From: Sulfitobacter sp.
Lineage (GTDB): Bacteria > Pseudomonadota > Alphaproteobacteria > Rhodobacterales > Rhodobacteraceae
NCBI GenBank assembly: GCA_051252055.1
Contig: JBPOFD010000006.1
Span: forward strand, 62,657-126,656
Length of the DNA stretch: 64,000 bases
Reading direction: 5' to 3'
Part shown: positions 26,942-58,463 of the stretch, in pieces
Layout of the letters: each line of letters begins with the position of its first letter
Position numbering within the stretch: position 1 is the stretch's first letter
Translations under genes and position numbers: made by a program
The notes under the pieces: generated by a model
What the model was told of the DNA's origin: nothing
What the model saw: only the letters and a program-made list of their open reading frames with translations
The model's database searches: none

Positions 26942-27343
26942 TTAGCGGGCGAAGGTGGCTGTGGCGAGGGCGACTTCTTTGCCGGAGGGGTCGGCCAGCA
27001 AGGTGCAGCGCGCGAAGATCATGGATTTGCCCGCCCGCGTGACCTGCGCGCGCGCGGTGATCTGGGTGCCGCTGGCGGGGCGCAGGAATTGCGTGTCGAG
27101 GGTGACGGTGCCCACGGGGATCATCTCGCCCAGATGCCCGCCGATGGCGAGGACCATGGCGGTGTCGGCGAGGGCGGTGAGCGCCTGGCCGCAGACGATG
27201 CCGCCGGTGCGCGCCAGAGCGGAGGTGATGGGCATGGTGAGGGTGGTTTGCGCGGGGGTGATTTGGGCGACGGTGATGTCGAGCGCCTGCACCCACGGGG
27301 CGAAGTTTTCTGCGAGGAAGGTTTGGGCGGTTTGGGGTGTCAT
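26942..27343 (-). CDS. PaaI-family hotdog-fold thioesterase
   Basis: 133 aa; GGIVCGQALTALADTA... pattern typical of PaaI/YbgC-like thioesterases. Confidence 0.85.
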   Translation of the reverse strand: MTPQTAQTFLAENFAPWVQALDITVAQITPAQTTLTMPITSALARTGGIVCGQALTALADTAMVLAIGGHLGEMIPVGTVTLDTQFLRPASGTQITARAQVTRAGKSMIFARCTLLADPSGKEVALATATFAR

Positions 27344-30870: not shown

Positions 30871-32253
30871 ATGATACAAACAATGACATATCCCGGCCAT
30901 GTACGGGCGATTTTGAAACTGGGCCTGCCGCTGATTGGCGGGCATTTGGCGCAGATGGCGATTGGCGTGACCGACACGGTGATGCTGGGCTGGTACGGGG
31001 TGGAGGCGCTGGCGGCGGTGACGCTGGCCTCGACCTATTTCTTTGTGCTTTTCATTTTCGGCTCGGGTTTTGCATGGGCGGTGATGCCTATGGTGGCCTC
31101 TTATGCCGCTGAGAAAAACGAGACCGGCATTCGCCGCGCCACGCGCATGGGGCTTTGGTTGTCGCTGGCCTTTGGCTTGCTGGCCTTGCCTTTGATGATC
31201 TGGTCCAAGCCGCTGTTGTTGATGCTGGGGCAGGGCGATGCGCTGGCGGAGCTGGCTTCGCAATATCTGGCGGTGGCGGGCTGGGGCATTGTGCCGGCGC
31301 TGCTTGTCATGGTGCTCAAGAGCTATCTGGCGGCGCTGGAGCGCACGCAGATTGTGCTGTGGATCACTGTTTTGGCCGCGATTGTGAATGTTTTCGCCAA
31401 TTACGCGTTTATTTTCGGCAATTGGGGCGCGCCTGAATTGGGCGTGGTGGGGGCGGCGCTTGCGTCGCTCTCGACGCAGTTTGTCTCGCTGCTGGGCGTG
31501 GTGGGTTATGTGCTGTGGATCATGCCGCATCATGCGCTGTTCCGGCGCATGTGGAAGGGCGATGTGCAGATGTTGGCCCAAGTGTTCCGTTTGGGCTGGC
31601 CGATTGGTTTGACCGCGCTGAGCGAGGTGGGTTTGTTTGCCGCCTCTGCGGTGATGATGGGCTGGCTGGGCACGGTGCCTTTGGCTGCACATGGGATTGC
31701 GGTGCAATTGGCCTCGATCACCTTCATGATGCATTTGGGGCTGAGCAATGTGGCCACGATCCGCGCGGGCAATGCCTATGGGCGCAGCGATGCCGATCAC
31801 ATGGCGCGCGGCGCGAAAGTGGTGATCATCATGTCGCTGGTGTTTTCCGCCCTGACCATTGCCATGTTCCTTGCCCTGCCGGAGACCCTGATTTCCGTTT
31901 TCATGCGCGAGGGGGAGACCGCCCGCGCCGAGATTTTGGCAATTGGTGTGGGGCTGCTGGCGATGGCGGCGCTGTTTCAACTTGTCGACGGGGCGCAGGC
32001 TGTGGCGCTGGGGCTGCTGCGCGGGGTGCAGGACACGCGGATTCCGATGATCTTTGCCGGGCTGAGCTATTGGGTGATTGGCATCCCCTGTTCCTATCTG
32101 CTGGGCTTTGTCTGGGGGATGGAAGGCATTGGCGTTTGGGCCGGGTTGGTTGTGGGGCTTGGCGTGGCGGCGGTGCTGCTCAATTGGCGGTTCTGGGCTG
32201 TGACCCTGCCCAATGTGCGGCGCACAGCGGGCAAGGCGCGTAGCGCAGCTTAA
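30871..32253 (+). CDS. MATE family efflux transporter
   Basis: 460 aa, 12 TM; LGLPLIGGHLAQMAIGVTDTVMLG N-terminal motif. Confidence 0.92.
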   Translation: MIQTMTYPGHVRAILKLGLPLIGGHLAQMAIGVTDTVMLGWYGVEALAAVTLASTYFFVLFIFGSGFAWAVMPMVASYAAEKNETGIRRATRMGLWLSLAFGLLALPLMIWSKPLLLMLGQGDALAELASQYLAVAGWGIVPALLVMVLKSYLAALERTQIVLWITVLAAIVNVFANYAFIFGNWGAPELGVVGAALASLSTQFVSLLGVVGYVLWIMPHHALFRRMWKGDVQMLAQVFRLGWPIGLTALSEVGLFAASAVMMGWLGTVPLAAHGIAVQLASITFMMHLGLSNVATIRAGNAYGRSDADHMARGAKVVIIMSLVFSALTIAMFLALPETLISVFMREGETARAEILAIGVGLLAMAALFQLVDGAQAVALGLLRGVQDTRIPMIFAGLSYWVIGIPCSYLLGFVWGMEGIGVWAGLVVGLGVAAVLLNWRFWAVTLPNVRRTAGKARSAA

Positions 32254-33128
32254 CCCCGGCTGCCCAGCCACACACAGGTGAGAACCACCCCCGCGCCCAG
32301 AAATTGCGCGGGGCTGAGCGTTTGGCCCAGAAAACCCCAGCCAAGCAGCACAGCGGTGAGCGGGCTGAGGAAGCCAAAATTGGTCACAGCGGCAGGGCCA
32401 AGCCGTTCAATGCCGCGAAACCAGAAAAAATAGCTCAGCGCCGCGCCGATCAGGCCGAGCCATGCAAGCCCTGCCAGATTGGCCGCGCTGAGCGAGGGCA
32501 GGGGCGGCTCGAGCCACAAAGCCACCGGCAAGAGCAGCAGCCCGCCAGCGGTGAGTTGCCAAGCGGTAAAGGTCAGCGCGCCCACGGGCGGTTGCCATTT
32601 GCGCGTCAGCACCACGCCCGCGCCCATGGAGACCGCGCCAATCAGCGCCGCCGCCACGCCCCAGGCATCCAGCGCCGCCCCCGGCGACATCACCAGCAGC
32701 GCCACGCCAAAGATACCCGCCGCCGCCGCGCCGAGCCTGCGCGCCCCCAGCGGCGCGCCAAGCGCCAGATGCGCCAGCAGCAGCACGATCAGCGGCTGCA
32801 CCGCGCCCAAGGTGGCCGCCACCCCGCCGGGCAGGTGATAGGCCGCAAAGAACAGCGCCGCCCAGAAGATCGCGAAATTCAGCGCCCCCAAGACCAGCAG
32901 CCGCCCCAGCCAGCGGCGCGGCGGCATTTGCCGGGTGAGCGCCATCAGCAGCAGCCCCGCAGGCAGCGCCCGCAGCGCCGCCACGCTGAGCGGCATATCT
33001 GCGGTTTCGGGCAGCAATTGGGTGGCGACGATATAGCTGCTGCCCCAGATCACTGGGGCCGAGGCCGCCAGCGCCAGATCAAGGCGGCGCGTGTTGGGCG
33101 CAGAGGGCGCGAGTGGGGCTGAGGTCAT
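32250..33128 (-). CDS. EamA/DMT family transporter
   Basis: 292 aa, 10 TM, two EamA repeats. Divergent from the MarR gene. Confidence 0.9.
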   Translation of the reverse strand: MTSAPLAPSAPNTRRLDLALAASAPVIWGSSYIVATQLLPETADMPLSVAALRALPAGLLLMALTRQMPPRRWLGRLLVLGALNFAIFWAALFFAAYHLPGGVAATLGAVQPLIVLLLAHLALGAPLGARRLGAAAAGIFGVALLVMSPGAALDAWGVAAALIGAVSMGAGVVLTRKWQPPVGALTFTAWQLTAGGLLLLPVALWLEPPLPSLSAANLAGLAWLGLIGAALSYFFWFRGIERLGPAAVTNFGFLSPLTAVLLGWGFLGQTLSPAQFLGAGVVLTCVWLGSRG

Positions 33129-33143
33129 GGGGGCATCCTTTGT

Positions 33144-33202
33144 CTTGACGTCAAGCTAGTTATCTTGAGGTCGAGATAGGTGTGCGGTCTCTTGATGTCA
33201 AG
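33144..33202. promoter_or_regulatory. three copies of a 12-nt palindromic operator CTTGAnGTCAAG in the EamA/MarR divergent region
   Basis: CTTGACGTCAAG (33144..33155, perfect palindrome), CTTGAGGTCGAG (33164..33175), CTTGATGTCAAG (33191..33202). Confidence 0.55.
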
Positions 33203-33226
33203 ATACCTGCCATGTTAGGCAGGGGC

Positions 33227-33718
33227 ATGGATCAAGTTGATAAAATTCTGGCGCAGTGGCGCGCCGAGCGGCCCGATTTGGATGTGAGCGCGATGGGGGT
33301 GTTTGGCCGGATCAAGCGCCTGTCGGATCATCTGGGGCGGGCGCTGAATGAGGTGTTCCTGCGCCACGGGCTGAACGCTGCCAATTTCGATGTGCTGGCG
33401 ACGCTGCGCCGGGCGGGCGCGCCCTATGCGCTTAGCCCGTCGGAATTGATGGAATGGACCATGGTGACATCGGGCACCATGACCAACCGTCTGGACCGTT
33501 TGGAGGCCGCAGGGTTGATCGAGCGGCGCAGCAATCCGCGCGACGGGCGCGGCTCGCTGGTGGCGCTGAGCCCGGCGGGTTTGGCATTGGTGGATGTGGT
33601 GGTGAGCGATCACGTGGCCAATCAGCAGCGCCTTTTGGAGGCGCTGCCGGAGGCGATGCGCGCCCCGCTTGATGCGGCGCTGGCCGCGTGGCTGGCGGCG
33701 TTTGAGGGGGCGGAGTAG
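33227..33718 (+). CDS. MarR family transcriptional regulator
   Basis: Winged-helix body (FDVLATLRRAG...SELMEWTMVTSGTMTNRLDRLEAAGLIER). The start is ATG 33227 or 33212. The GTG at 33182 lies inside the operator region. Confidence 0.85.
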   Translation: MDQVDKILAQWRAERPDLDVSAMGVFGRIKRLSDHLGRALNEVFLRHGLNAANFDVLATLRRAGAPYALSPSELMEWTMVTSGTMTNRLDRLEAAGLIERRSNPRDGRGSLVALSPAGLALVDVVVSDHVANQQRLLEALPEAMRAPLDAALAAWLAAFEGAE

Positions 33719-43390: not shown

Positions 43391-43517
43391 GCGTCGAGGC
43401 CGCGCAACCCGGCACCGCGCAGGGTGCAAGCCGCGTTATGCCCTGTGGGAACCAAGGGCGGCTCTTTTTGTTAACCACTCGTGAAGCATGCGCCCCGCAA
43501 AATGCAGGGCGGCTGCG

Positions 43518-43724
43518 TCAGAGAAGTTTTAGATCGCTTGCCATTTGTCGGCCATCGCGCCCTTCGGTGAGCTCGTAGCTGATCTTTTGATCATCGGCCA
43601 AGCCGGTCAGACCGGATTGCTCGACAGCTGAAATATGGACAAAAACATCACTGCCACCTGCTTCGGGCGCAATAAACCCGTAGCCTTTGGTGGTGTTGAA
43701 CCATTTCACGGTGCCATTTGGCAT
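43518..43724 (-). CDS. cold-shock domain protein (CspA family)
   Basis: MPNGTVKWFNTTKGYGFIAPEAGGSDVFVHISAV; 68 aa. About 160 nt of non-coding DNA lies upstream, consistent with a long csp leader. Confidence 0.95.
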   Translation of the reverse strand: MPNGTVKWFNTTKGYGFIAPEAGGSDVFVHISAVEQSGLTGLADDQKISYELTEGRDGRQMASDLKLL

Positions 43725-43884
43725 AATTCCCCGTGCCTCCTTCGTTTAGTCAAGTTGCCGCAAATCGCGGCATGGGGACGCACCCCACACCTAGCAAGAT
43801 TGCGCAATCTCAAATAAAATCAAGTTCTGCGTCGATTTTATTGCAAAGCGGCGGCATAAGCGCTGAAAAATCAGGAGAATTTTA

Positions 43885-44229
43885 ATGAAAAGCGAGACTG
43901 AGGCGCAGGGGCGGCTGTTTGGGCTGAAAAATTGCGACACATGCCGCAAGGCGCTGAAAGCGGTGCCGGGGCTGGCGCTGGTGGATGTGCGCGCCGATGG
44001 GGTGCCGCCGGAGGTGATGGCGCGGGCGCTGGCGGAATTTGGCGCGGCTTTAGTGAATACGCGGTCGACCACGTGGCGGGGCTTGGATGAGGCGCAGCGG
44101 GCGCGGCCCGCTGCGGAACTTTTGGCAGAGCATCCGGCGCTGATGAAGCGGCCTTTGATCCTTGCCCAGTCGCAGATGTTTCTGGGCTGGAGCAAGGAGG
44201 TGCAGGCGCAGGTTGAGGCTCTGGTTTAA
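43885..44229 (+). CDS. ArsC/Spx/MgsR-family thioredoxin-fold protein
   Basis: LFGLKNCDTCRKALK motif; 114 aa. The start is uncertain. Confidence 0.8.
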   Translation: MKSETEAQGRLFGLKNCDTCRKALKAVPGLALVDVRADGVPPEVMARALAEFGAALVNTRSTTWRGLDEAQRARPAAELLAEHPALMKRPLILAQSQMFLGWSKEVQAQVEALV

Positions 44230-44780
44230 CCGATGGATTTGGCGCGCAAGGCCCGGTCGAGGGACAGGGGGCCTGCGCCTTTGATCACAAGGACGAGCAG
44301 CAAGAAAACCCAGAATGCGCGCTGGTCGAGGATGATCGCGTCTGGGAAACGGTCAAACCATGCGCCGAGGACTTTGGGGTCTTCGAAACCGTTGTGGCCG
44401 TAGAGATCTGTGAGCGATTGCAAGGTGATAAAGCCGATCATGCCAAGCGCGGAGAGGCGGGTCAGCAGGCCGAGCACCACCAGCGCGGGCAGGATGAATT
44501 CGCCCCATGTGCCGCCCATGACGACCAGCGTGTGAAAGATGCTGAGCTGGTCTGTATCATAGCCTGCGGCCTCCATCGCGCGGGGGAAAATCTGCGCGTA
44601 GGCCCCCACGGAGGGGGAGAAAATGCCGGCAAAGCCTTCGCCAAGTTTGGTCAGGCCAGAGACCCAGAAATAGATCAGCAACACGCCCGCAAAGATCAGC
44701 CGGGCGAGGGTGGGCAGGAGCCAATCGCTGCGGTCGAGGGCATCGGCGAGGCGGCGGTAGGCGGAGAGAAGTGCGTTCAT
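44226..44780 (-). CDS. DoxX-family membrane protein (last gene of the bufferin-like cluster)
   Basis: 184 aa, about 4 TM, with DoxX-like hydrophobic pattern. Co-directional with the DUF2063 gene, 24 nt downstream of it. Confidence 0.8.
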   Translation of the reverse strand: MNALLSAYRRLADALDRSDWLLPTLARLIFAGVLLIYFWVSGLTKLGEGFAGIFSPSVGAYAQIFPRAMEAAGYDTDQLSIFHTLVVMGGTWGEFILPALVVLGLLTRLSALGMIGFITLQSLTDLYGHNGFEDPKVLGAWFDRFPDAIILDQRAFWVFLLLVLVIKGAGPLSLDRALRAKSIG

Positions 44781-44804
44781 GGTCAGTCCTTTATGGGCCG
44801 GTGT

Positions 44805-45560
44805 TTAACCAGCGGAAGGGGGCGCGCAAAACGCCCCGGCGGCGAGGGTCAGGCCAAGGGCCTGTGCCAGATCAAAATCGGGGGCAGCTTGGGCGGCAGC
44901 CTCGCAGGCGCGCTGCAGCGGCGCGCCGCCGCGCAGGGTTTCGAGCCATGTGGCCGCGCCCGAAGGGAGGGCGGCAGGCATTGGGTCAAACTCGGGGCGG
45001 GTGATGAGGATGTCTTGGGGAACGGGGGCGGGTTTGGGCGCATCCGCTTGGGTGTTGAAGCGCCAGATGTCAAAAAGCGGCCAGTCGGAGCGCAGGATAA
45101 GCGTAGCCGGGGCCAGCGGCAAATGCAGCGCCATGAGCGCCTCTGGGGGCAGGGCCGCGAGGCTGGCGGCGTCGAACGGGGCGGCATCAGCGGCATGGTA
45201 GGAGCGGCGCAGGGCCAGATCGAGGGCCGCGCAATCGGGCAGGTAACCCAGATGGGCCAGCGGCGCAAACCCATGTAAAAATTCAGGGAAATCAGCGCCG
45301 TAATGCATCATCAGCGGCGATTTTGGCGGGTGGGCGCGCACAAAGATCGGCATCAGGCTGTCGAAGTTTTGCGGCCCGATGATTTTGCGCACCAGCGGGA
45401 AGGCGGTTTTCATCGCTTCGATTAACGATGTGGTGACATTGTTGCGATACACATCATAGCGGCGCCCGGCGGGGCGGCCTGCGCCGTCGATCAGCCCGTC
45501 GGGAACGGGGCTTTGCGCGTCGAGCAGGGCGGCGCGGAATTGCGATTGCGACAGGGTCAT
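44805..45560 (-). CDS. DUF2063 protein (MbnC/BufC-like partner of the MNIO enzyme)
   Basis: FRAALLD...[34 protein letters not shown] is the DUF2063 N-terminal signature. Its start overlaps the DUF692 stop by 4 nt. Confidence 0.8.
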
Positions 45561-46450
45561 GCGGGGGCACCTGCGGGCAGGGCGATGCGGCTGAGCGCGG
45601 CGGCGGCGCGGCTGGCCTCATCGCGTAGAACAGGCCAATCGGGCACGTCATTGTCCCATTCCACCAGCACCGGGCGCGGGCCGGAGCGGGCGAGGGTGTA
45701 ATCAAGCAGGGCCCAGACGGGATCAACCACCGCTTTGCCGTGGCTGTCGATGAGCAGGGGCGCGCCGTGATCATCGCTGTCTTCGTCGTGGCCGCCCACG
45801 TGAATCTCGCCCACGGCATCAAGCGGGAAGGCGTCGATATAGGCCTGCGGCGAGAGGCCAAGATTGGTGGCGGAAATGAACACATTGTTCACATCCAGCA
45901 AGAGACCACAGGAGGTTTTGTGGGTAAGTTCGGAAAGAAAGTCCGTTTCGGACAAGCTGGAATCGGCAAAGGCGAGGTAGCTGGAGGGGTTTTCCAGCAG
46001 CATTTGGCGGCCCAGCACGTCTTGGACCTGGGCGATGTGATCCGCGACGCGGGCCAAGGTGGCGGGGGTGTAGGGCAGGGGCAGCAGATCATTCATGAAC
46101 TCGGCCCCATGGGTGGACCATGCCAGATGTTCGGAAAAGCTGGCTGGATTGCTGCGGTCGATCAGGGTTTTGAGGCGGGCAAGATGCGCCGTATCAAGCG
46201 GGGTTTCACCGCCGATGGACAGGCCAACCCCATGCACGGAAAGCGCAAATTCGGCGCTGAGGGCGGCAAGCTGGGCCAGCGGTCTGCCGCCATCGCCCAT
46301 GTAGTTTTCCGCATGCACTTCGATCCAGCGCACCGGGCCGGGAGCGTCGCTAAGCTGTTGGAAATGTTGGGGTTTATAGCCTACCCCCGGCGCATGTGGC
46401 AGGGATGTGAGGCGGGGAGGATGCTGTGTCATCGCTGGCCCTATGTCCAT
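45557..46450 (-). CDS. DUF692/UPF0276 multinuclear non-heme iron oxidase (MbnB/BufB-like)
   Basis: GVGYKPQHF..., [29 protein letters not shown] and HVGGH motifs. An alternative start is ATG 46432. Confidence 0.88.
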
Positions 46451-46581
46451 TTGGAGATGTCCGTTTGGAACGGTGCGTTTTGAAAGCTGTGGCGGCAGGC
46501 GCGGGGGCCTGAGATGCCCTGTTCGGCTTGGCGCGCAGGCCCGAGGATCGGAGCGTGGCCAGAGCGGGACCGGAGCTGTGG

Positions 46582-46606
46582 CCGGGCAGGCGCGGGGCCT
46601 GCCCGG
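46582..46606 (-). terminator. perfect 10-bp hairpin 10 nt after the precursor gene stop (attenuator/stabiliser candidate)
   Basis: CCGGGCAGGC-N5-GCCTGCCCGG read directly; no U-tract. It lies in a 165-nt spacer between the precursor and enzyme genes. Confidence 0.55.
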
Positions 46607-46615
46607 AGCCGCAAT

Positions 46616-46918
46616 TTATGCGGGCAGATCGCGGTCGAGCGCGGCCAGAGAGCCTTTGCGCGCGGTGCCGTCTGCCATGGCGGGCAGGTCCATGGTTTCG
46701 CAGGAGCCTGCGTCAACCAATGTCCAAGCGTTGCCTTGGTAATCTGTGACCGATGTGCCCGCGCAGGTGGTGCCGGGACCGGCGGCGCAATCATTGGCGC
46801 CTGCCAGGGAAACGCCGTAGCATTTTTCTTTGGACGCGGCCTGCACGGTGGTGGCTTGGGCGGCCAGAGCAGCGGCAACGGCCCCCGCGATTGCGAATGT
46901 TTTAACTGTTGTCGACAT
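46616..46918 (-). CDS. DUF2282 Cys-rich secreted peptide (bufferin/BufA-like RiPP precursor)
   Basis: 100 aa; Sec signal ...AAQATTVQA|AS; core [27 protein letters not shown]...GSCE with Cys33/44/52/73; AAGGAG RBS upstream. Confidence 0.8.
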
Positions 46919-47098
46919 GGATCGTCTCCTTTGGTTTAGAACGAAAACCTGTTTGATGGCACCAATAGATCAGCCTTGGGGGCCGGGGGCCATTCACGAG
47001 ACAGTGTGTCACATCCGCGTTAGGAAATCCGCTCAAACATGGGGAATTCCGAAACATTTGACGGATTCTGGCGCGGGGTTGTAACAAAAACGCCGCAG

Positions 47099-47124
47099 CG
47101 CCCGGCCCGCGATGGGGCCGGGCG
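47099..47124 (-). terminator. thrS terminator hairpin
   Basis: CGCCCGGCCC-N6-GGGCCGGGCG perfect 10-bp stem 9 nt after the thrS stop. A TTTTT run follows 9 nt further on. Confidence 0.55.
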
Positions 47125-47133
47125 TGAGAATTG

Positions 47134-49080
47134 TTACAGAAGATCTGGCGGGGTGGCGTCGCGGCCCAGCGAGGCGGCGACTTCATCCAGCGGTTGCACC
47201 GAAGTTTGTTTTTCGCCAAGGCGGCGGACAGAGACTGTGCGTTCTTCGACTTCGCGCGCGCCCACCGCGAGGATCACCGGCACTTTGCCAACGGAATGTT
47301 CGCGCACCTTGTAGTTGATCTTTTCATTGCGGGTGTCTGCTTCGGCGCGCACCCCTGCGGCGCGCAGGGTTTCGACCACTTCGTTCACATAGTCATCCGC
47401 CTCGGAGGTGATCGAGGCCACAACCACTTGGCGCGGGGCCAGCCAGAAGGGCAATTTGCCTGCGTGTTCTTCGATCAAGATGCCGATGAAACGCTCAAAG
47501 CTGCCCAAAGTGGCGCGGTGCAGCATGACGGGGCGGTGTTTGGCCCCATCGGCGCCGATGAACGTGGCGTCGAGCCGTTCGGGCAGGTTGGGGTCCACCT
47601 GAAGTGTGCCGCATTGCCAGTTCCGGCCAATCGCGTCGGTGAGGGTGAATTCCAGTTTCGGGCCGTAGAATGCGCCTTCGCCTTCGAGCAGTTCGTATTC
47701 GTAGCCCGCCGCCTTGCAGGCATCGCCCAAGGCTTTTTCCACGCGGTCCCAGCTTTCGTCGCTGCCGATGCGTTTTTCGGGACGGGTGGAGAGTTTGATG
47801 GTCCAGTCGTGGAAGCCCAGATCGGCGTAGACTTCCGACAGGAAGGCGATGAAACGCGCGGTTTCATCGGTGATCTGGTCTTCGGTGCAGAAAATATGCC
47901 CGTCATCTTGGGTAAAGCCGCGCACCCGCATGATGCCATGCAGCGCGCCCGAGGGCTCGTAGCGGGCGCAGGAGCCAAATTCGGCCATGCGCAGTGGAAG
48001 GTCGCGATAGGATTTCAGGCCCTGATTGAAGATCTGCACGTGGCAGGGGCAGTTCATCGGTTTGAGCGCGTTGACGGCTTTTTCGCGGGCATGTTCTTCG
48101 TCCACTTCGACGATGAACATGTGGTCTTGGTATTTATCCCAGTGGCCGGAGGCCTCCCATAATTTGCGGTCGACGACCTGCGGGGTGTTGACCTCGACAT
48201 AGCCGCCTTTGCGCTGTTGGCGGCGCATGTAATCTTGCAATTGGGTGTAGATGCCCCAGCCGTTGGGGTGCCAGAAGACTTGGCCGGGGGCCTCTTCTTG
48301 CATGTGGAAGAGGTTCATTTCGCGGCCAAGTTTGCGGTGGTCGCGTTTTGCGGCCTCTTCGAGCATGTTGAGATGGGCGCGCAGTTTCTCTTTGCCGGTG
48401 AAGGCCACGCCGTAGATGCGTTGCAGCATGGCGCGGTTGCTGTCGCCGCGCCAATAGGCGCCCGCGATGGACATGAGTTTGAACGCATCGCCGGGCACTT
48501 GGCCGGTGTGTTGCAGGTGCGGGCCACGGCACAGGTCTTGCCAGTCGCCATGCCAATACATGCGCAGCGGCTCGTCGCCGGGGATCGCGTCGATCAGTTC
48601 GACCTTATAGGGCTCGCCGCGGTCTTGGTAATATTGCACAGCGCGGGCGCGGTCCCAGACTTCGGTGCGCACGGCGTCGCGTTTGTTGATGATTTCTTTC
48701 ATCTTTTTCTCGATCAGCCCCAGATCTTCGGGGGTGAACGGCTCGGCGCGGTCAAAGTCGTAATACCAGCCGTCCTTGATCACCGGGCCGATGGTGACTT
48801 GGGTGTCGGGCCAGATTTCCTGCACGGCGCGGGCCATGATATGCGCGAGGTCGTGGCGCACCAGCTCATTGGCTTGGTCTTCGTCGGCCATGGTGTGGAT
48901 CGCGATGGCGGCATCGGCGTTGATGGGCCATTGCAGGTCAAAATGCTGGCCATCCACGGTGGCGCTGATGGCTTTTTTGCCCAGCGAGGTGGAAATGGAG
49001 GTGGCGACTTCGGCGGCGGTGATGCCTGCGTCGAAGGATTTTGCATTGCCATCGGGGAAAGTGAGAGAGATCTGGGCCAT
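47134..49080 (-). CDS. thrS: threonine--tRNA ligase
   Basis: 648 aa; TGS N-terminus ([16 protein letters not shown]), editing domain, class II core and anticodon domain. Confidence 0.98.
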
Positions 49081-49188
49081 GTCAGGCGCTCCTCGTCAGT
49101 TTGGCGCCCACGAGACGCCCGGTTGCGGGTTATGTGTTTCGCCCTATTTGGCTTTGTCATAGGGGCAAGTCAACACGGGAAACGGCAG

Positions 49189-50490
49189 ATGGCAGGCAGC
49201 AAAGCGCAAAAAGCATTTGGTTTGATTGCAGGAAATGCAGGCAGCAGCAGCCCTGATGCGGGCGGTTTGCCGCCCCGCGCGGCGCAGGCCGAGCCGCGCA
49301 ATGGGCTGCGTCATGCGGCGTCTTTGTCGATGACGAAAGTGGCGGATGGGCTGATTGATCCCAAGCTGGTGTTGAGCTGGTTGCTGACTGCGTTGGGCGC
49401 GCCTGCGATCTATGCCGGGGCTTTGGTGCCGATCCGCGAGGCGGGCGCGCTGTTGCCGCAGATTGTGCTGGCGGGCTGGGTGCAGCGCATGGCGCGGCGC
49501 AAATGGGCGTGGGTTGCCGGATCTGCCGGGCAGGGTTTTTTTGCGGCGTTGATTGCGCTGGCGGCGCTGGCGCTGGAGGGGGCGGCGGCGGGGCTGGCGA
49601 TTTGCGGTGCGCTGGCCGCGCTCGCCCTGTGCCGGGCGATGTGTTCGGTGTCGTTTAAAGAGATTTTGGGCAAGACCGTGGGGCAGGCGCGGCGCGGGGC
49701 GGTGACCGGGCTGGCGGGGTCGATATCGAGCATTGGGGTGCTGATTTTTGCGGGGCTGCTGATGTCGGGTCTGTTTCAGAGCCGGGGCGTGGTGATTGGC
49801 GCGCTGCTGCTTGCGGCGGCGCTTTGGGCGGGAGCGGCGCTGCTCTTTGCTGCGCTGGAGGAAGAGCCAAGCGAGGCGGGGCCAGATGCGGGGGCCACAT
49901 GGGAGGTTTTGCGCGGCAATAGGGTGCTGTGGCGGTTCATTGCCGCGCGCGGGCTGTTGGTGTCGACCGCGCTGGCGCCGCCCTATCTGGTGGTGCTGTC
50001 GGGGGGCGAAGGGCAGGGCAGTTTGGGGCATTTGGGCGGGCTGGTGCTGGCCTCGGCGGCGGCGTCATTGCTCAGTTCTTACGTCTGGGGGCGGTTGGCG
50101 GATCGCTCCAGCCGCTGGGTGCTGATGGCAACCGGCGTGGTGGGCGCGGGGGCCATGGCGCTGGCGCTGGGGTTTGAGTTTGCGGGGCTGGCGGGGAGTT
50201 TCTGGGCGATGCCGCTGGCGCTGTTTGTGTTGATGATCGCCTATCACGGGGTGCGGCAGGGGCGATCGACCTATTTGGTGGATATGGCCCCGCAGGACCG
50301 CCGCGCGGCCTATGCGGCGGTGTCGAACACGGTGATCGGCGGGCTTTTGCTGTTGGCGGGGATTGCGGGCGGCGGGGCGGCGCTGTTTGGGGCGGTGCCT
50401 GTTTTGCTGTTGTTTGCGGGTATGGCGCTGGCGGGCTGCGCGGTGGCGTTTGGTTTGCCCGAGGCGCAGGAGTATCGTGCGCCGGGCTGA
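49189..50490 (+). CDS. MFS transporter
   Basis: Track ORF 48217..50490 trimmed to ATG 49189 (MAGSKAQ...), because the upstream part is antisense to thrS. 12 TM-like segments. Confidence 0.85.
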   Translation: MAGSKAQKAFGLIAGNAGSSSPDAGGLPPRAAQAEPRNGLRHAASLSMTKVADGLIDPKLVLSWLLTALGAPAIYAGALVPIREAGALLPQIVLAGWVQRMARRKWAWVAGSAGQGFFAALIALAALALEGAAAGLAICGALAALALCRAMCSVSFKEILGKTVGQARRGAVTGLAGSISSIGVLIFAGLLMSGLFQSRGVVIGALLLAAALWAGAALLFAALEEEPSEAGPDAGATWEVLRGNRVLWRFIAARGLLVSTALAPPYLVVLSGGEGQGSLGHLGGLVLASAAASLLSSYVWGRLADRSSRWVLMATGVVGAGAMALALGFEFAGLAGSFWAMPLALFVLMIAYHGVRQGRSTYLVDMAPQDRRAAYAAVSNTVIGGLLLLAGIAGGGAALFGAVPVLLLFAGMALAGCAVAFGLPEAQEYRAPG

Positions 50491-55194: not shown

Positions 55195-57009
55195 ATGATT
55201 AAGATGACAACAAAAACCACTGGTACAGAGGCCCCAGCCGAGCAATCTCTGCCGCGGCTGACCGAAAACCTTAAGAAAGTGGAAGAGCTTACGCTGCGGT
55301 TGCATCATGTAATTTCGACCCGTTCGACACATCAAGCGGCGCTGGATGGGCCGAATCAGGAACTCTTTACCAAGGCCGCGCAGTCCTATTTGCACGAGGC
55401 AATGACCAATCCGGCCAAGGTTTTAGAGCATCAGATGTCTTTTTGGGCAAAATCTGTGACCCATTATATGGAGGCGCAGCAGGCGCTGGCCAAAGGGGCG
55501 CTGAGCGCGCCTGAGGATCGCGGCCCCGAAGACCGGCGGTTTGCCAATCCGCTATGGCGCTCGCACCCGTATTTTAACTTTGTGAAACAGCAATATCAGC
55601 GCAATGCCGAGGCATTGGCGCAATCTGTGGATGATGTGGAGGGGATGGAGGGCCACGAGAAACAGCGGCTGCAATATTTCAGCCGCCAGATCATTGATAT
55701 GATGTGCCCGACGAATTTTCTGGCCACCAACCCTGATGCGCTGGAGCGTGCGGTGGAGACCGAAGGCGAGAGTTTGGTGAAGGGGCTGGAAAACCTGATT
55801 GGCGATCTGGAGGCCAATAACGGCGAGTTGGTGGTGCGGCTGGCTGATGAAAAGGCCTTTGAGCTGGGCGGGAATATTGCCACGACCCCCGGCAAAGTGG
55901 TGTTTCGCAACCGCATGTTTGAGCTGATCCAATACAGCCCCAGCACCGAAGAAGTGCATAAAACCCCGCTGGTGGTGTTTCCGCCGTGGATCAATAAATT
56001 CTATATTCTGGACCTCAAAGCGCAGAATTCTTTTGTGAAATGGGTGGTGGATCAGGGTTATACGCTGTTCATGGTGTCTTGGGTCAATCCGGGGCGCGAC
56101 TATGCGCAGGTCGGCATGGAGGATTACCTTGAAGAGGGGTATCTGGCCGCGTTTGATCAGGTGAAGCAGATCACCGGCGAGAAGAAGGTTAACGCGGTGG
56201 GCTATTGCATCGCGGGGACGACTTTGTCGCTGGCCTTGTCGCTGCTCAAACAGCGCGGCGATAAATCGGTGAAATCGGCCACGTTCTTTACCGCGCTGAC
56301 GGATTTTTCCGATCAGGGCGAGTTTCGTCCGTTTTTGACCAATGATTTCATAGACGGGATTGAGGCGGAGATTGACGATAAAGGCGTGTTGCCGTCGATT
56401 GTGATGGCGCGGACCTTTAGCTTTTTGCGCTCCAATGATCTGGTCTATGGGCCTGCGATCAAAAGCTATATGATGGGCGAGACGCCGCCCGCCTTTGATC
56501 TGCTTTATTGGAATGGCGATGGGGCGAACCTGCCCGGTAAGATGGCGGTGCAGTATCTGCGCGGGCTGTGCCAGCGCAATGAGCTGGCTGAGGGCGGGTT
56601 TGAATTGCTGGGGCATCGGCTTCAATTGGCGGATGTGGATGTGCCGCTTTGTGCGATTGCCTGTGAGACCGATCATATTGCGCCGTGGAAGGACAGCTAT
56701 CGCGGCGTGCAGCAGATGGGCAGCACGGATAAGCATTTCATCATGACGCAATCGGGGCATATCGCGGGGATCGTGAACAGCCCTTCGCGCAATAAATACG
56801 GGCATTACACCCATGATGATCTGAATTTGGATTATGAGGATTGGCGCGCTTCGGCGAGTTTCCATGAGGGGTCGTGGTGGCCGCGCTGGGAGAAATGGCT
56901 CAGCGGGCATTCGGGCAAGATGGTGCCGGCGCGACATCCCGGCGAGGGCGGCGCGCAGGTGCTGGGCGATGCGCCGGGCAGTTATGTGCAGGTCAAAGCG
57001 CGGGCCTAG
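55195..57009 (+). CDS. phaC: class I poly(R)-hydroxyalkanoate synthase
   Basis: 604 aa; lipase-box-like GYCIAGT; AGGAGG RBS at 55187..55192. Confidence 0.96.
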   Translation: MIKMTTKTTGTEAPAEQSLPRLTENLKKVEELTLRLHHVISTRSTHQAALDGPNQELFTKAAQSYLHEAMTNPAKVLEHQMSFWAKSVTHYMEAQQALAKGALSAPEDRGPEDRRFANPLWRSHPYFNFVKQQYQRNAEALAQSVDDVEGMEGHEKQRLQYFSRQIIDMMCPTNFLATNPDALERAVETEGESLVKGLENLIGDLEANNGELVVRLADEKAFELGGNIATTPGKVVFRNRMFELIQYSPSTEEVHKTPLVVFPPWINKFYILDLKAQNSFVKWVVDQGYTLFMVSWVNPGRDYAQVGMEDYLEEGYLAAFDQVKQITGEKKVNAVGYCIAGTTLSLALSLLKQRGDKSVKSATFFTALTDFSDQGEFRPFLTNDFIDGIEAEIDDKGVLPSIVMARTFSFLRSNDLVYGPAIKSYMMGETPPAFDLLYWNGDGANLPGKMAVQYLRGLCQRNELAEGGFELLGHRLQLADVDVPLCAIACETDHIAPWKDSYRGVQQMGSTDKHFIMTQSGHIAGIVNSPSRNKYGHYTHDDLNLDYEDWRASASFHEGSWWPRWEKWLSGHSGKMVPARHPGEGGAQVLGDAPGSYVQVKARA

Positions 57010-57029
57010 AGTTTGGCAGCGCCGGGGTT

Positions 57030-57055
57030 ATTTGAGTATTTTTAGAAGGGTGAAG
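57030..57055 (+). repeat. dispersed intergenic motif, copy C
   Basis: ATTTGAGTATTTTTAGAAGGGTGAAG, 26/26 identical to the reverse complement of 30701..30726. It runs into the phaC terminator stem. Confidence 0.85.
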
Positions 57056-57080
57056 GGGGCGCGGTGGCGGCCCCTTTTTT
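57053..57080 (+). terminator. intrinsic terminator of phaC
   Basis: AAGGGGCGC..GCGGCCCCTT stem followed by TTTTTT. Confidence 0.65.
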
Positions 57081-57172
57081 GTGCTGCAGTGCAATAAATT
57101 TCTCGTAAATCGGGGCTGCGCGTCCATATTTATAAGGTTATCAAGGATTTACCCTAGGGTAGAAATTTTATG

Positions 57173-57213
57173 CTGCACTGCGGAATAAATCTTGAAATGC
57201 TGCGGTGCAGCAT
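57173..57213. promoter_or_regulatory. PhaR operator candidates upstream of phaP
   Basis: ATGCTGC-GGT-GCAGCAT (57197..57213, perfect 7-nt inverted arms) and CTGC-ACT-GCGG (57173..57183). Matches the CTGC-N3-GCAG type reported for Rhodobacter PhaR. Confidence 0.55.
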
Positions 57214-57278
57214 GTATATTGGTTTCAGACGAGAAACGCCGGGGATGGCCTCGGATTGATAGTTTAAGGATGAACCCA

Positions 57279-57722
57279 ATGACTAAGACCCAAGATTATT
57301 CCGCGATGTTCAAAGACGTCATGGGCAGCTTTCCAGTGGACACAGCCGCCATGGAAAATGCGTTCAAATCTTCCGCTTCTTTGAATGAGAAACTCTCAGG
57401 TGTGGCGCTGAATGCGGCCGAGAAAACCACCGAGATTTCCACCAAATGGACCAAAGAGACACTGACCAAATTGGCAGACATGTCCAAGGCCAAGCAAGAG
57501 CCCGCAGATTACGCCAAAGCGATGACCGATTTCGCATCGGCTTCTGCTGAAGTTGCTGCCGAGCACATGGCCGCATTTGCCGAGATCGCCAAGAAGGTCC
57601 AGATGGACACTGTTGAGTTGATGATGGCTGCGGGCAAAGACATGCAAGAAGAAGCAACTTCGGCTGTTAAAAAAGCATCTGACGATGTGCAAGCTGCGGC
57701 CAAGAAAGCCACAGCGAAGTAA
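57279..57722 (+). CDS. phaP: phasin (PHA granule-associated protein)
   Basis: Trimmed to MTKTQDYSAMFKDVMGSFP (AAGGA 8 nt upstream). 147 aa, Ala/Lys/Glu-rich and helical. Confidence 0.85.
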   Translation: MTKTQDYSAMFKDVMGSFPVDTAAMENAFKSSASLNEKLSGVALNAAEKTTEISTKWTKETLTKLADMSKAKQEPADYAKAMTDFASASAEVAAEHMAAFAEIAKKVQMDTVELMMAAGKDMQEEATSAVKKASDDVQAAAKKATAK

Positions 57723-57799
57723 GCCGTGCCGCAAGGCATGTGCGATCCATAGCCGCAAGGCGATGCGCGTCCGATCCTCCCTCGGTGGCGCGCAAGAAG

Positions 57800-57834
57800 G
57801 GGCGGGCTTGGTGACAAGCTCGCCCTTTGTTTTT
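57800..57834 (+). terminator. intrinsic terminator of phaP
   Basis: GGGCGGGCTTG-GTGA-CAAGCTCGCCC (11 bp, one G-U) followed by TTTGTTTTT. Confidence 0.7.
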
Positions 57835-57867
57835 GGGGGCCTTTCTTTTTCTGCGCCGCCCCCCTAA

Positions 57868-57880
57868 GCTGCAATGCAGC
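57868..57880. promoter_or_regulatory. PhaR autoregulatory operator candidate
   Basis: GCTGC-AAT-GCAGC perfect palindrome about 25 nt upstream of the phaR start. Confidence 0.5.
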
Positions 57881-57902
57881 ACTCTTGCAGGAGGAATTTT
57901 CC

Positions 57903-58463
57903 GTGGCCACAAGCGACAAGCCATTGCTGATCAAGCGGTACGCCAGCCGTCGGCTTTATAACACTGAAACCAGCGATTACGTGACGCTCGAGGATATTGG
58001 CGGGTTCATCCGCGATGGGCGCGAGGTTCAGATTGTTGATCTGAAATCGGGTGATGATCTGACGCGGCAATATTTGCTCCAGATCATTGCCGAGCATGAG
58101 AGCCGGGGCGAGAATGTTTTGCCGGTGGATGTGCTCAATGATTTGGTGCGCAGCTATATGACGGGCAATGTCAGCGTGGTGCCGCAGTTCTTGCAGACCT
58201 CGTTTGCGATGTTGCGCGAAGGGCAGAGCCGGGCGATGGAGAATATGAGCGCCATCAACCCGATTGCCAAGATGCCCGGTTTCGAGGCCATGCAGGCCCA
58301 GCAACAGGCGTTTTTCAAAGCGATGACAGAGACCTGGCCTGCGGGCAGCAGCGGGCCCGAGCGCGGCGCTGGCAAAGAGACCAAAGAAGCGGGCGGCGAT
58401 GATTTGAACGCCATCAAGCAGCAGCTTGCCGAGCTTCAGGAAAAGCTGAGCAAGCTGAAGTAG
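57903..58463 (+). CDS. phaR: polyhydroxyalkanoate synthesis repressor
   Basis: GTG start with an AGGAGG RBS about 9 nt upstream; ...LLIKRYASRRLYNTETSDYVTLEDI is the PhaR signature. Confidence 0.92.
   Translation: MATSDKPLLIKRYASRRLYNTETSDYVTLEDIGGFIRDGREVQIVDLKSGDDLTRQYLLQIIAEHESRGENVLPVDVLNDLVRSYMTGNVSVVPQFLQTSFAMLREGQSRAMENMSAINPIAKMPGFEAMQAQQQAFFKAMTETWPAGSSGPERGAGKETKEAGGDDLNAIKQQLAELQEKLSKLK

Follow-up and report, generated by a model that had tools for sequence, protein, structure and literature searches.

Bufferins are the largest family of peptides made by the ribosome and modified after translation (RiPPs) associated with multinuclear non-haem iron oxidases (MNIOs) (PMC11626156), and their core cluster comprises the genes of a precursor, an MNIO, a DUF2063 protein and a DoxX protein (PMC12452194). 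The founding bufferin operon is buf1 of Caulobacter vibrioides (BufA1-BufB1-BufC1-BufD1; CCNA_03363-03366), where the core of the precursor has four cysteines (Cys12, Cys23, Cys31 and Cys52), the second and third being converted to 5-thiooxazoles (−4.03 Da each) and the first and fourth forming a disulfide (PMC11626156). DoxX is not needed for this modification in Caulobacter, and the mature bufferin binds copper with very high affinity (PMC11626156; 10.1101/2025.11.18.689057). Here, a locus is described in a 64,000-nt stretch of a Sulfitobacter sp. genome (GenBank assembly GCA_051252055.1, contig JBPOFD010000006.1, positions 62,657 to 126,656 of the forward strand; hereafter the window, whose own numbering is used throughout) that has every appearance of a canonical Buf1-type bufferin (captophorin) operon, bufA-bufB-bufC-doxX, because all family-defining features that can be checked in silico are present. 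The explanation as a whole, a chromosomal, vertically inherited Buf1-type operon together with its maturation and proposed regulation, is considered highly probable. What is new here is a conserved double box upstream of the operon, which matches the binding matrix of the response regulator CenR, and a conserved hairpin after bufA.

The window locus has the same gene order as buf1 and the same four protein families, and it likewise encodes a Sec signal peptide, an MNIO with a DUF2063 partner, DoxX in last place and a precursor predicted to be small and folded. The two differ in control, as SigF and NrsF are encoded next to buf1, which has a GTAACC-N16-CGAA promoter, whereas the window locus has no linked regulator and has CenR-type boxes. 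In addition, the core of the window precursor would have a shorter N-terminus than that of Caulobacter if it is cleaved after Ala27, and the window locus, its boxes included, is known from sequence alone. Orthologous DUF2282/DUF692/DUF2063/DoxX foursomes make up the gig operons of Cupriavidus metallidurans and Legionella pneumophila and the BvgAS-controlled operon of Bordetella pertussis, which are metal-induced or under a virulence regulator and lie in other taxa and other genomic contexts than the window locus; regulation among them varies by lineage.

Among other captophorins, oxazolin (HvfA-C of Haemophilus influenzae), fontiphorin and gonophorin are made by an MNIO-PME1 pair that turns Cys into 5-thiooxazoles, their products bind copper, and DoxX is often present (PMC13097082; 10.1101/2025.11.18.689057). 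Their precursors, however, are EGKCG-repeat peptides, whereas the window precursor is a folded DUF2282 domain. An oxazolin or HvfABC-type cluster was rejected, as the window MNIO reaches 232.7 bits with the NCBIfam HvfB model (cut-off 360), the DUF2063 and DoxX proteins fall far below the HvfC (34.3 bits, cut-off 142) and HvfX (23.1 bits, cut-off 80) cut-offs, and the precursor has no EGKCG repeats. In methanobactin biosynthesis (MbnABC), the MNIO MbnB and its partner MbnC also make a copper ligand from Cys of a ribosomal peptide, and the window MNIO aligns to MbnB structures, but the chemistry is of the oxazolone-thioamide type, the leader peptide is not a Sec signal, and the product is a secreted copper-acquisition chalkophore that is induced by copper starvation. 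A methanobactin cluster was rejected as well (MbnB model 54.6 bits, cut-off 325), the window precursor consisting of a Sec signal and a folded domain of 73-78 aa.

An earlier annotation of this DNA, made by a model without database searches (the sequence-only reading), had proposed a bufferin-type cluster of four co-directional minus-strand genes for a periplasmic metal-buffering RiPP. The open reading frames (ORFs) called over the 64-kb window include these genes, on that strand and at exactly the coordinates it gave, their products all exceed the gathering scores of the Pfam models DUF2282, DUF692 (MbnB_TglH_ChrH), DUF2063 and DoxX, and the features of family membership described below support the proposal as far as sequence comparison can. 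The gene bufA (46616..46918; ORF and Pfam match) encodes a BufA1/DUF2282 precursor of 100 aa, bufB (45557..46450; ORF, Pfam and NCBIfam equivalog) a MNIO (DUF692) maturase of 297 aa, bufC (44805..45560; Pfam and structure model) a partner protein of 251 aa and the DUF2063/HvfC_N family (PME1 type), with a C-terminal domain that resembles a RiPP recognition element (RRE), and doxX (bufD; 44226..44780; Pfam DoxX) a DoxX-family inner-membrane protein of 184 aa. They are flanked upstream by thrS (47134-49080, minus strand) and, beyond doxX, by a convergent gene of the ArsC/YffB family (43885-44229, plus strand), both identified by ORF and domain match. A strong Shine-Dalgarno sequence (AAAGGAG, 46932-46926) precedes bufA. 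For bufB, a second ATG at 46432, which is preceded by a weak AGGG and was chosen by another gene caller, would give a protein of 291 aa and is the more likely start. The ATG of bufC and the TGA of bufB share four nucleotides (ATGA), an overlap already recorded in the sequence-only reading, and this suggests translational coupling; doxX starts 24 nt past bufC and has a good Shine-Dalgarno sequence of its own.

The precursor, BufA, matches Pfam DUF2282 (PF10048, now named BufA1) with E = 8.6e-23 and 80.5 bits (cut-off 22.4) over profile positions 1-50 of 53, and its precomputed annotation is PF10048:BufA1. Its cysteines, correctly placed by the sequence-only reading at positions 33, 44, 52 and 73 with DUF2282-like spacing, are separated by 11, 8 and 21 residues, which is identical to the spacing in Buf1 of C. 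vibrioides by the published Cys numbering. A HMMER search with BufA against 1.84 billion cluster representatives returned 959 clusters at E ≤ 1e-3, and in an alignment of 131 diverse family members the four Cys columns are nearly invariant (125/128, 127/131, 130/131 and 116/129). The EKCYG, NDCAAG, GTxCAGTS and DYQGNAW motifs of this alignment are all present in BufA, as is a C-terminal G-S-L...LP tail that is common to the whole family. By inspection, the N-terminus has the n/h/c layout of a Sec-type signal, with a basic n-region (K6), a hydrophobic h-region (residues 7-20) and two possible cleavage sites of the AxA type, AQA22 and VQA27, between which the choice is ambiguous; the signal peptide of the sequence-only reading was right, with AQA22 as an alternative to the VQA site it had named. 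In the AlphaFold (AF2) model of BufA the leader is disordered; the core is structured and comprises a two-stranded sheet and, at Cys44, a short helical turn, with lower confidence in the Cys44-Cys52 loop. This predicted fold agrees with the published description; a sequence search of the PDB gave no true match. By analogy with Buf1, Cys44 and Cys52 are the predicted thiooxazole sites and Cys33 and Cys73 the predicted disulfide, and mature BufA would have a monoisotopic mass of 7227.24 Da with a core of 73 aa (A28-A100) or 7727.50 Da with one of 78 aa (T23-A100).

BufB matches Pfam MbnB_TglH_ChrH with E = 2.9e-101 and passes the NCBIfam equivalog MNIO_BufB (‘MNIO family bufferin maturase’) with 365.8 bits against a cut-off of 310, staying under the NCBIfam cut-offs of HvfB, ApyH, MbnB and ChrH. 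It aligns over the whole barrel to the DUF692 structure 3BWW (E = 1.9e-43) and also to TglH (8HCI) and MbnB (7DZ9), and in these alignments it keeps the motifs VHG72, SEH106, EN153, DVNN186, HVGGH217, DSH235 and EWD264, whose His, Asp, Glu and Asn residues are, by comparison with MbnB structures, the presumed iron ligands. BufC matches Pfam DUF2063 with E = 8.8e-25, and a PDB search with its sequence gave no true match. Its AF2 model (predicted local distance difference test score, pLDDT, 92.6; predicted template modelling score, pTM, 0.87) was matched by Foldseek to TglI (8HCI_A, E = 2e-5) and NgoC (3DEE, E = 3e-4, template modelling score 0.67) and more weakly to MbnC and to RRE proteins of the McbB type. 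The DoxX protein matches Pfam DoxX with E = 5.8e-6 and 27.3 bits (cut-off 23.6) and has about four hydrophobic segments in hydropathy windows.

The same four genes are found together throughout the Roseobacter group. A genome scan with BufB as query gave 80 loci, all in this group (Sulfitobacter, Roseobacter, Ruegeria, Sedimentitalea, Tateyamaria, Marinovum and others), and almost everywhere the architecture is thrS > bufA > bufB > bufC > doxX < arsC > cspA. The buf genes are intact and syntenic in 80/80 wherever the contig is long enough, and their products are 45-89% identical across genera. Conservation of the block in all 80 loci puts the grouping of the four genes far beyond chance, and the uniform synteny argues for a vertically inherited chromosomal fixture and not an island. 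In relatives of the Ruegeria and Parasedimentitalea type, an additional gene that is absent from the window lies between doxX and arsC (L026, 10136-10585; L069, 10800-11168); its product, about 122-149 aa and ending in ...GKPDEPKAHF, is a small membrane protein and was on that ground rejected as a regulator. In a more distant relative (L082/L083, 3039-5644; BufA 62% identical), thrS and bufA are separated by inserted genes of an aldehyde dehydrogenase and a GAF/HTH_8 (MimR_N) regulator, and a degenerate form of the double box described below still lies about 83 nt upstream of bufA.

The locus is a routine member of a well-known, database-annotated family. Databases already apply the name ‘BufA1 family periplasmic bufferin-type metallophore’ to homologues of the precursor at 80-87% identity (Sulfitobacter, Roseobacter, Sedimentitalea) and ‘HvfC/BufC family peptide modification chaperone’ to those of BufC, and the captophorin study (10.1101/2025.11.18.689057) counts over 24,000 MNIO-partner loci, which are found in about half of the reference genomes of Pseudomonadota, so that the novelty which the sequence-only reading saw in the cluster does not stand. 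That reading knew of no Rhodobacterales member that had been studied, and this is right for experiments, as no experimental study of a Rhodobacterales bufferin was found in the literature search, but a published genome table already counts assemblies of Rhodobacterales in which Buf1, DUF692, DUF2063 and DoxX each occur once. It had further pointed to the absence of an adjacent regulator, with thrS and an ArsC/Spx-family gene as flanks. The flanks are right, and of the ORFs scanned with Pfam within about 13 kb on each side, none encodes a sigma/anti-sigma, NrsF or metal-sensor protein; nor is there a response-regulator gene linked to the locus in the scans of the window or in the 80 relatives, none of which has space for a SigF/NrsF pair between thrS and arsC. 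The absence is therefore real but it is not distinctive, since DUF2282 accompanies 5,268 MNIO loci and NrsF only 1,596 (Table S1, PMC12452194), so that a SigF/NrsF neighbour is possible for no more than about 30% of Buf1 loci. Likewise, the contrast it drew with characterised loci that carry sigma/anti-sigma genes holds only in part, as the B. pertussis operon is under BvgAS and the window locus carries conserved CenR-type boxes. The sole finds of the regulator scan were judged unrelated to buf, namely PhaR (57885-58463), which lies beside phaC (55195-57009) and a phasin-like gene (57192-57722) in a polyhydroxyalkanoate gene set (55195-58463), and a MarR-family regulator (33182-33718, plus strand), which forms a divergent pair (32250-33718) with an EamA-family transporter (32250-33128, minus strand). 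The ArsC/Spx-family neighbour was also rejected as a regulator, being YffB-like and under all NCBIfam cut-offs, and its adjacency is uninformative because it is syntenic along with the whole region.

The operon has an upstream region of its own, since a strong intrinsic terminator of thrS (GCCCGGCCC-CATCGC-GGGCCGGGC followed by a T-run; 47086..47123, minus strand, read from the sequence and given for context), with a terminator-like site also predicted at 47112-47093, separates thrS from the buf promoter region. In a MAFFT alignment of 79 non-identical loci over the 170 nt that precede bufA, the sole block that was at least 90% conserved besides the ATG was T.AC...GTGA..CAC...GTGA.T, the Shine-Dalgarno sequence being conserved only at the level of at least 75%. 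With a matrix made from these sites, the 64-kb window yields a single match at a score of at least 12, the block itself, and at a threshold of 14 the only matches in 1.2 Mb of locus flanks are upstream of bufA. The second GTGA, at the 3′ end of the block, is 63-103 nt from the bufA ATG, mostly about 78. The block is made up of two units, T(G/C)AC-N6-GTGA and (A/T)CAC-N6-GTGA, and a literature search on TCAC-N6-GTGA led only to the alphaproteobacterial response regulator CenR.

Envelope biogenesis and cell division are controlled by the CenK-CenR system, whose regulator CenR is essential in those alphaproteobacteria where it has been studied. In Sinorhizobium meliloti, CenR is a class II activator that binds AGTCAC-N6-GTGACT centred at −42, as verified by electrophoretic mobility shift assay, and the T and A of the half-site are essential by mutagenesis. 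In Rhodobacter sphaeroides, chromatin immunoprecipitation sequencing and RNA sequencing gave a 15-bp TGA-N8-TGA consensus and 31 transcription units (PMC9275681); 28 of the 31 sites are co-directional and directly upstream of the −35 element, and 29 of the 31 units encode envelope or periplasmic proteins, the targets including tolQ, surA, dsbC, msrA, ccmF, cycH and rpoH1. The published R. sphaeroides matrix was re-implemented, which reproduced the published Patser scores within 0.25, and verified R. sphaeroides sites score 7.1-10 with it. By this matrix, box 1 of the window (TAACGCGGATGTGAC, TGA-N8-TGA class; 47008..47022, minus strand) scores 8.07 and box 2, which abuts it (ACACTGTCTCGTGAA; 46993..47007, minus strand), scores 5.25. 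In most relatives box 1 has the form TGACG-N5-GTGAC, as in TGACGCGGGCGTGAC of L042, and this resembles the CenR site of R. sphaeroides RSP_1199, TGACGCGGGCGTGAA, while box 2 resembles the autoregulatory site of cenR itself, ACACGAGCGCGTGAG (Table 1, PMC9275681).

Across the 79 loci, the best forward-strand CenR score has a median of 9.10, compared with 3.74 for dinucleotide shuffles (95th percentile 6.76), and 89% of the loci lie above that percentile. An abutting 15-mer scoring at least 4 is found in 70% of the loci and in 0.4% of random 15-mers; at relaxed thresholds an abutting pair is found in 56/79 loci, and within the window exactly one of 127,942 positions has a double box as strong as that upstream of bufA. 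The only other abutting pair of CenR-matrix matches in the window lies at 27248-27277 (plus strand; TTGCGCGGGGGTGAT and TTGGGCGACGGTGAT, scores 7.21 and 5.37).

A candidate −10 element for the operon is TCTATT (46964..46969, minus strand), and most relatives have a CTAnnT/TTTAnT-like element 24-31 nt downstream of the boxes, with T at 65-69% in three positions. With TCTATT as the −10, the −35 would be predicted at 46992-46987, abutting box 2, the start of transcription near 46957-46960 and the box centres near −44 and −59, a geometry that would fit both the 28 of 31 R. sphaeroides sites and the −42 site of S. meliloti. The promoters known to be under CenK-CenR (R. sphaeroides tolQ, surA, dsbC, msrA, RSP_1199 and cenR; S. 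meliloti srlA) have 15-bp boxes of the TGA-N8-TGA/TCAC-N6-GTGA kind that are co-directional, abut the −35 and serve periplasmic or envelope products, all as predicted for bufA, where, however, two boxes abut. The literature search found no work that treats CenR jointly with bufferin, MNIO, DUF692 or DUF2282, and no bufferin gene has been reported for any CenR regulon, including the published one of R. sphaeroides; the absence from the latter is uninformative because a Cereibacter assembly (R. sphaeroides group) has no Buf1 or DUF692 gene in the published genome table, as is also the case for Paracoccus assemblies.

The second conserved element lies behind the precursor gene. Nine nt past the bufA stop there is a GC-rich hairpin of 10 bp without a U-tract (CCGGGCAGGC-CCCGC-GCCTGCCCGG; 46582..46606, minus strand), and 95% of 76 relatives have a hairpin of −19 kcal/mol or below in the same position, with sequences that bear no relation to one another. 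Over the relatives the median energy is −24.5 kcal/mol, compared with −14.1 kcal/mol for coding controls of the same length (Mann-Whitney p = 8e-35), whereas the whole bufA-bufB spacer folds no better than shuffles (z = −0.76), so that only the local hairpin is real. It may be a partial terminator or an mRNA stabiliser that sets the ratio of precursor to enzymes. An RNA element such as a riboswitch in the leader or the spacers was rejected, with spacer folding close to that of shuffles and no Rfam match at E ≤ 1 within 43400-47300; window-wide, no Rfam family reaches its gathering score, and the 64 kb contain no tRNA or tmRNA. The spacer also has an imperfect direct repeat of about 27 nt (CAGGCCCC(C)GCGCCTGCC(CG)GCCACAGCT, at 46601-46574 and 46511-46485, minus strand), the first copy of which forms the hairpin, and duplication of this repeat is probably why the spacer has 165 nt here compared with about 55-120 nt in relatives.

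These features can be joined in a single proposed sequence of events. Transcription would begin at a promoter of the operon's own, downstream of the thrS terminator, and would be activated by an OmpR-family response regulator on the two abutting 15-bp boxes just upstream of the −35. This regulator is most likely, with about even confidence, CenR of the envelope-stress system CenK-CenR, and SigF/NrsF of Caulobacter would not be involved. The hairpin past bufA would attenuate read-through or stabilise the bufA message, giving more precursor than enzymes. By analogy with the characterised bufferins, BufB together with BufC would carry out the four-electron oxidation of Cys44 and Cys52 to 5-thiooxazoles in the cytoplasm, after which the product would be exported by Sec, lose its leader to signal peptidase and form the Cys33-Cys73 disulfide. 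The mature acidic protein of about 7.2 kDa would then chelate copper in the periplasm, DoxX having an accessory role.

Direct activation of the Roseobacter-group bufferin operon by CenK-CenR through the abutting predicted boxes is put forward tentatively, with confidence that falls a little short of even, and several observations weigh against it or against other parts of the scheme. A single box is not significant alone, since box 1 ranks seventh of 127,972 window positions by the CenR matrix and six others score at least as high; these six adjoin cytoplasmic housekeeping genes and are most plausibly chance matches. The CenR matrix is low in information, box 1 of the window has TAA in place of TGA, and the −10 is weakly conserved and as a candidate weakly supported. 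The 79 loci are related by descent, and hence their conservation shows a functional element and not the identity of its binder. As to the remainder of the scheme, no NCBIfam BufA1 model was matched by the window precursor, for which there is only a weak BufA2 match; BufC and DoxX are, by their scores, family members and not equivalogs of the oxazolin proteins; T-runs follow the hairpins of some relatives and not that of the window; and the modified peptide, its metal binding and the transcript are all predicted from homology and sequence.

In a bufferin operon of this kind the double box could instead be bound by a regulator other than CenR, which is possible but rather doubtful. Candidates would be a metal-responsive OmpR-family regulator like CopR or CusR, an EssR-like partner of the kind that cross-regulates with CenR in Brucella, or a dimeric repressor of TCAC-N6-GTGA palindromes. 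The boxes can indeed be read in two ways, as palindromes or as direct repeats whose period is 11 bp, an ambiguity shared by the S. meliloti site, half-sites are alike across OmpR-family regulators, the CenR matrix is low in information, and a metal sensor would make physiological sense as characterised bufferin operons are metal-induced. What speaks for CenR is that the full 15-mer pattern of verified CenR sites is matched (L042 with RSP_1199, box 2 with the cenR site), that position and orientation suit CenR-activated promoters, and that neither the window nor any of the 80 relatives has a linked response-regulator gene. It is very improbable that the block is the promoter of a SigF-like extracytoplasmic function (ECF) sigma factor whose gene lies elsewhere in the genome. 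In Caulobacter, buf1 and buf2 depend on SigF, and the xxAC ... CGT elements here superficially resemble the −35 and −10 of such promoters, but the SigF promoter is GTAACC-N16-CGAA, the distance from AC to CG is here 20 nt and not 17, the invariant central GTGA..CAC has no counterpart in it and the block resolves into two 15-bp repeats. Moreover, the ORFs scanned within about 13 kb of the locus include no sigma or NrsF gene, and the thrS-arsC interval of the relatives has no space for one.

The function of the product can be questioned apart from its control. A periplasmic thiooxazole protein could in roseobacters serve not copper buffering but the response to envelope, oxidative or thiol stress or the handling of another metal, which seems unlikely. 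The predicted wiring to an envelope-stress regulon with dsbC, msrA and rpoH1 would suit such a role, as would the response of gig-type operons to gold, cadmium and other metals, the MerC-bufferin fusions, which suggest other metals, the protection that DoxX homologues give against oxidative and sulfur stress, and the universal conservation of the locus in a housekeeping neighbourhood. Every characterised member, however, binds copper, Caulobacter bufA reporters respond to Cu and not to Fe, Zn or Mn, and the residues of the metal-binding loop are conserved in the window BufA. That the cluster is a relic, with its precursor unmodified or its genes silent, is barely credible: no expression or product data for Rhodobacterales were found, but across genera the four ORFs remain intact and keep their order, with proteins that are 45-89% identical, the catalytic motifs and Cys residues are invariant, and conservation extends to the promoter element, the hairpin and the Shine-Dalgarno sites.

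As a biosynthetic system the operon offers little that is new, as bufferins and captophorins have been described chemically and genetically and are annotated automatically. Of some interest is its setting, since it is fixed in the thrS ... arsC-cspA housekeeping neighbourhood across the Roseobacter group, which are abundant marine bacteria, and such fixed vertical inheritance argues that in the sea it has a constitutive role in homeostasis of copper or of the envelope. The CenR-type double box suggests how bufferin operons without SigF/NrsF, which are the majority, might be controlled. If this is true, a copper-chelating RiPP would join the core envelope-stress programme together with DsbC, MsrA, SurA and Tol, rather than being under a dedicated metal-sensing ECF circuit, periplasmic copper buffering would be tied to the envelope-stress response, and the CenR regulon would gain its first natural-product cluster. 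The conserved hairpin past the precursor gene is a possible device for setting the precursor-to-enzyme stoichiometry.

Around the operon, the stop codons of doxX (minus strand) and of the ArsC/YffB-family gene (plus strand) overlap within TTAA (44226-44229), which leaves no space for a terminator, so that the two transcripts must overlap at their 3′ ends. Beyond the ArsC/YffB-family gene the order is cspA, P450, folA and thyA. The longest ORF of the P450 gene (42062-43390) runs into the end of folA, and its true start is probably later. The P450 gene adjoins cspA in only some relatives (Sulfitobacter and Roseobacter) and is not part of the buf cluster; it was rejected as a source of a tailoring enzyme, being on the opposite strand with two genes between, present only in some relatives and of generic similarity to ApyO. 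On the other side, an ORF of 757 aa (48217-50490, plus strand) that runs antisense across thrS is a high-GC artefact, of which only the 3′ part (about 49300-50490) is a real gene, that of a major facilitator superfamily transporter, which is also found upstream of thrS in many relatives.

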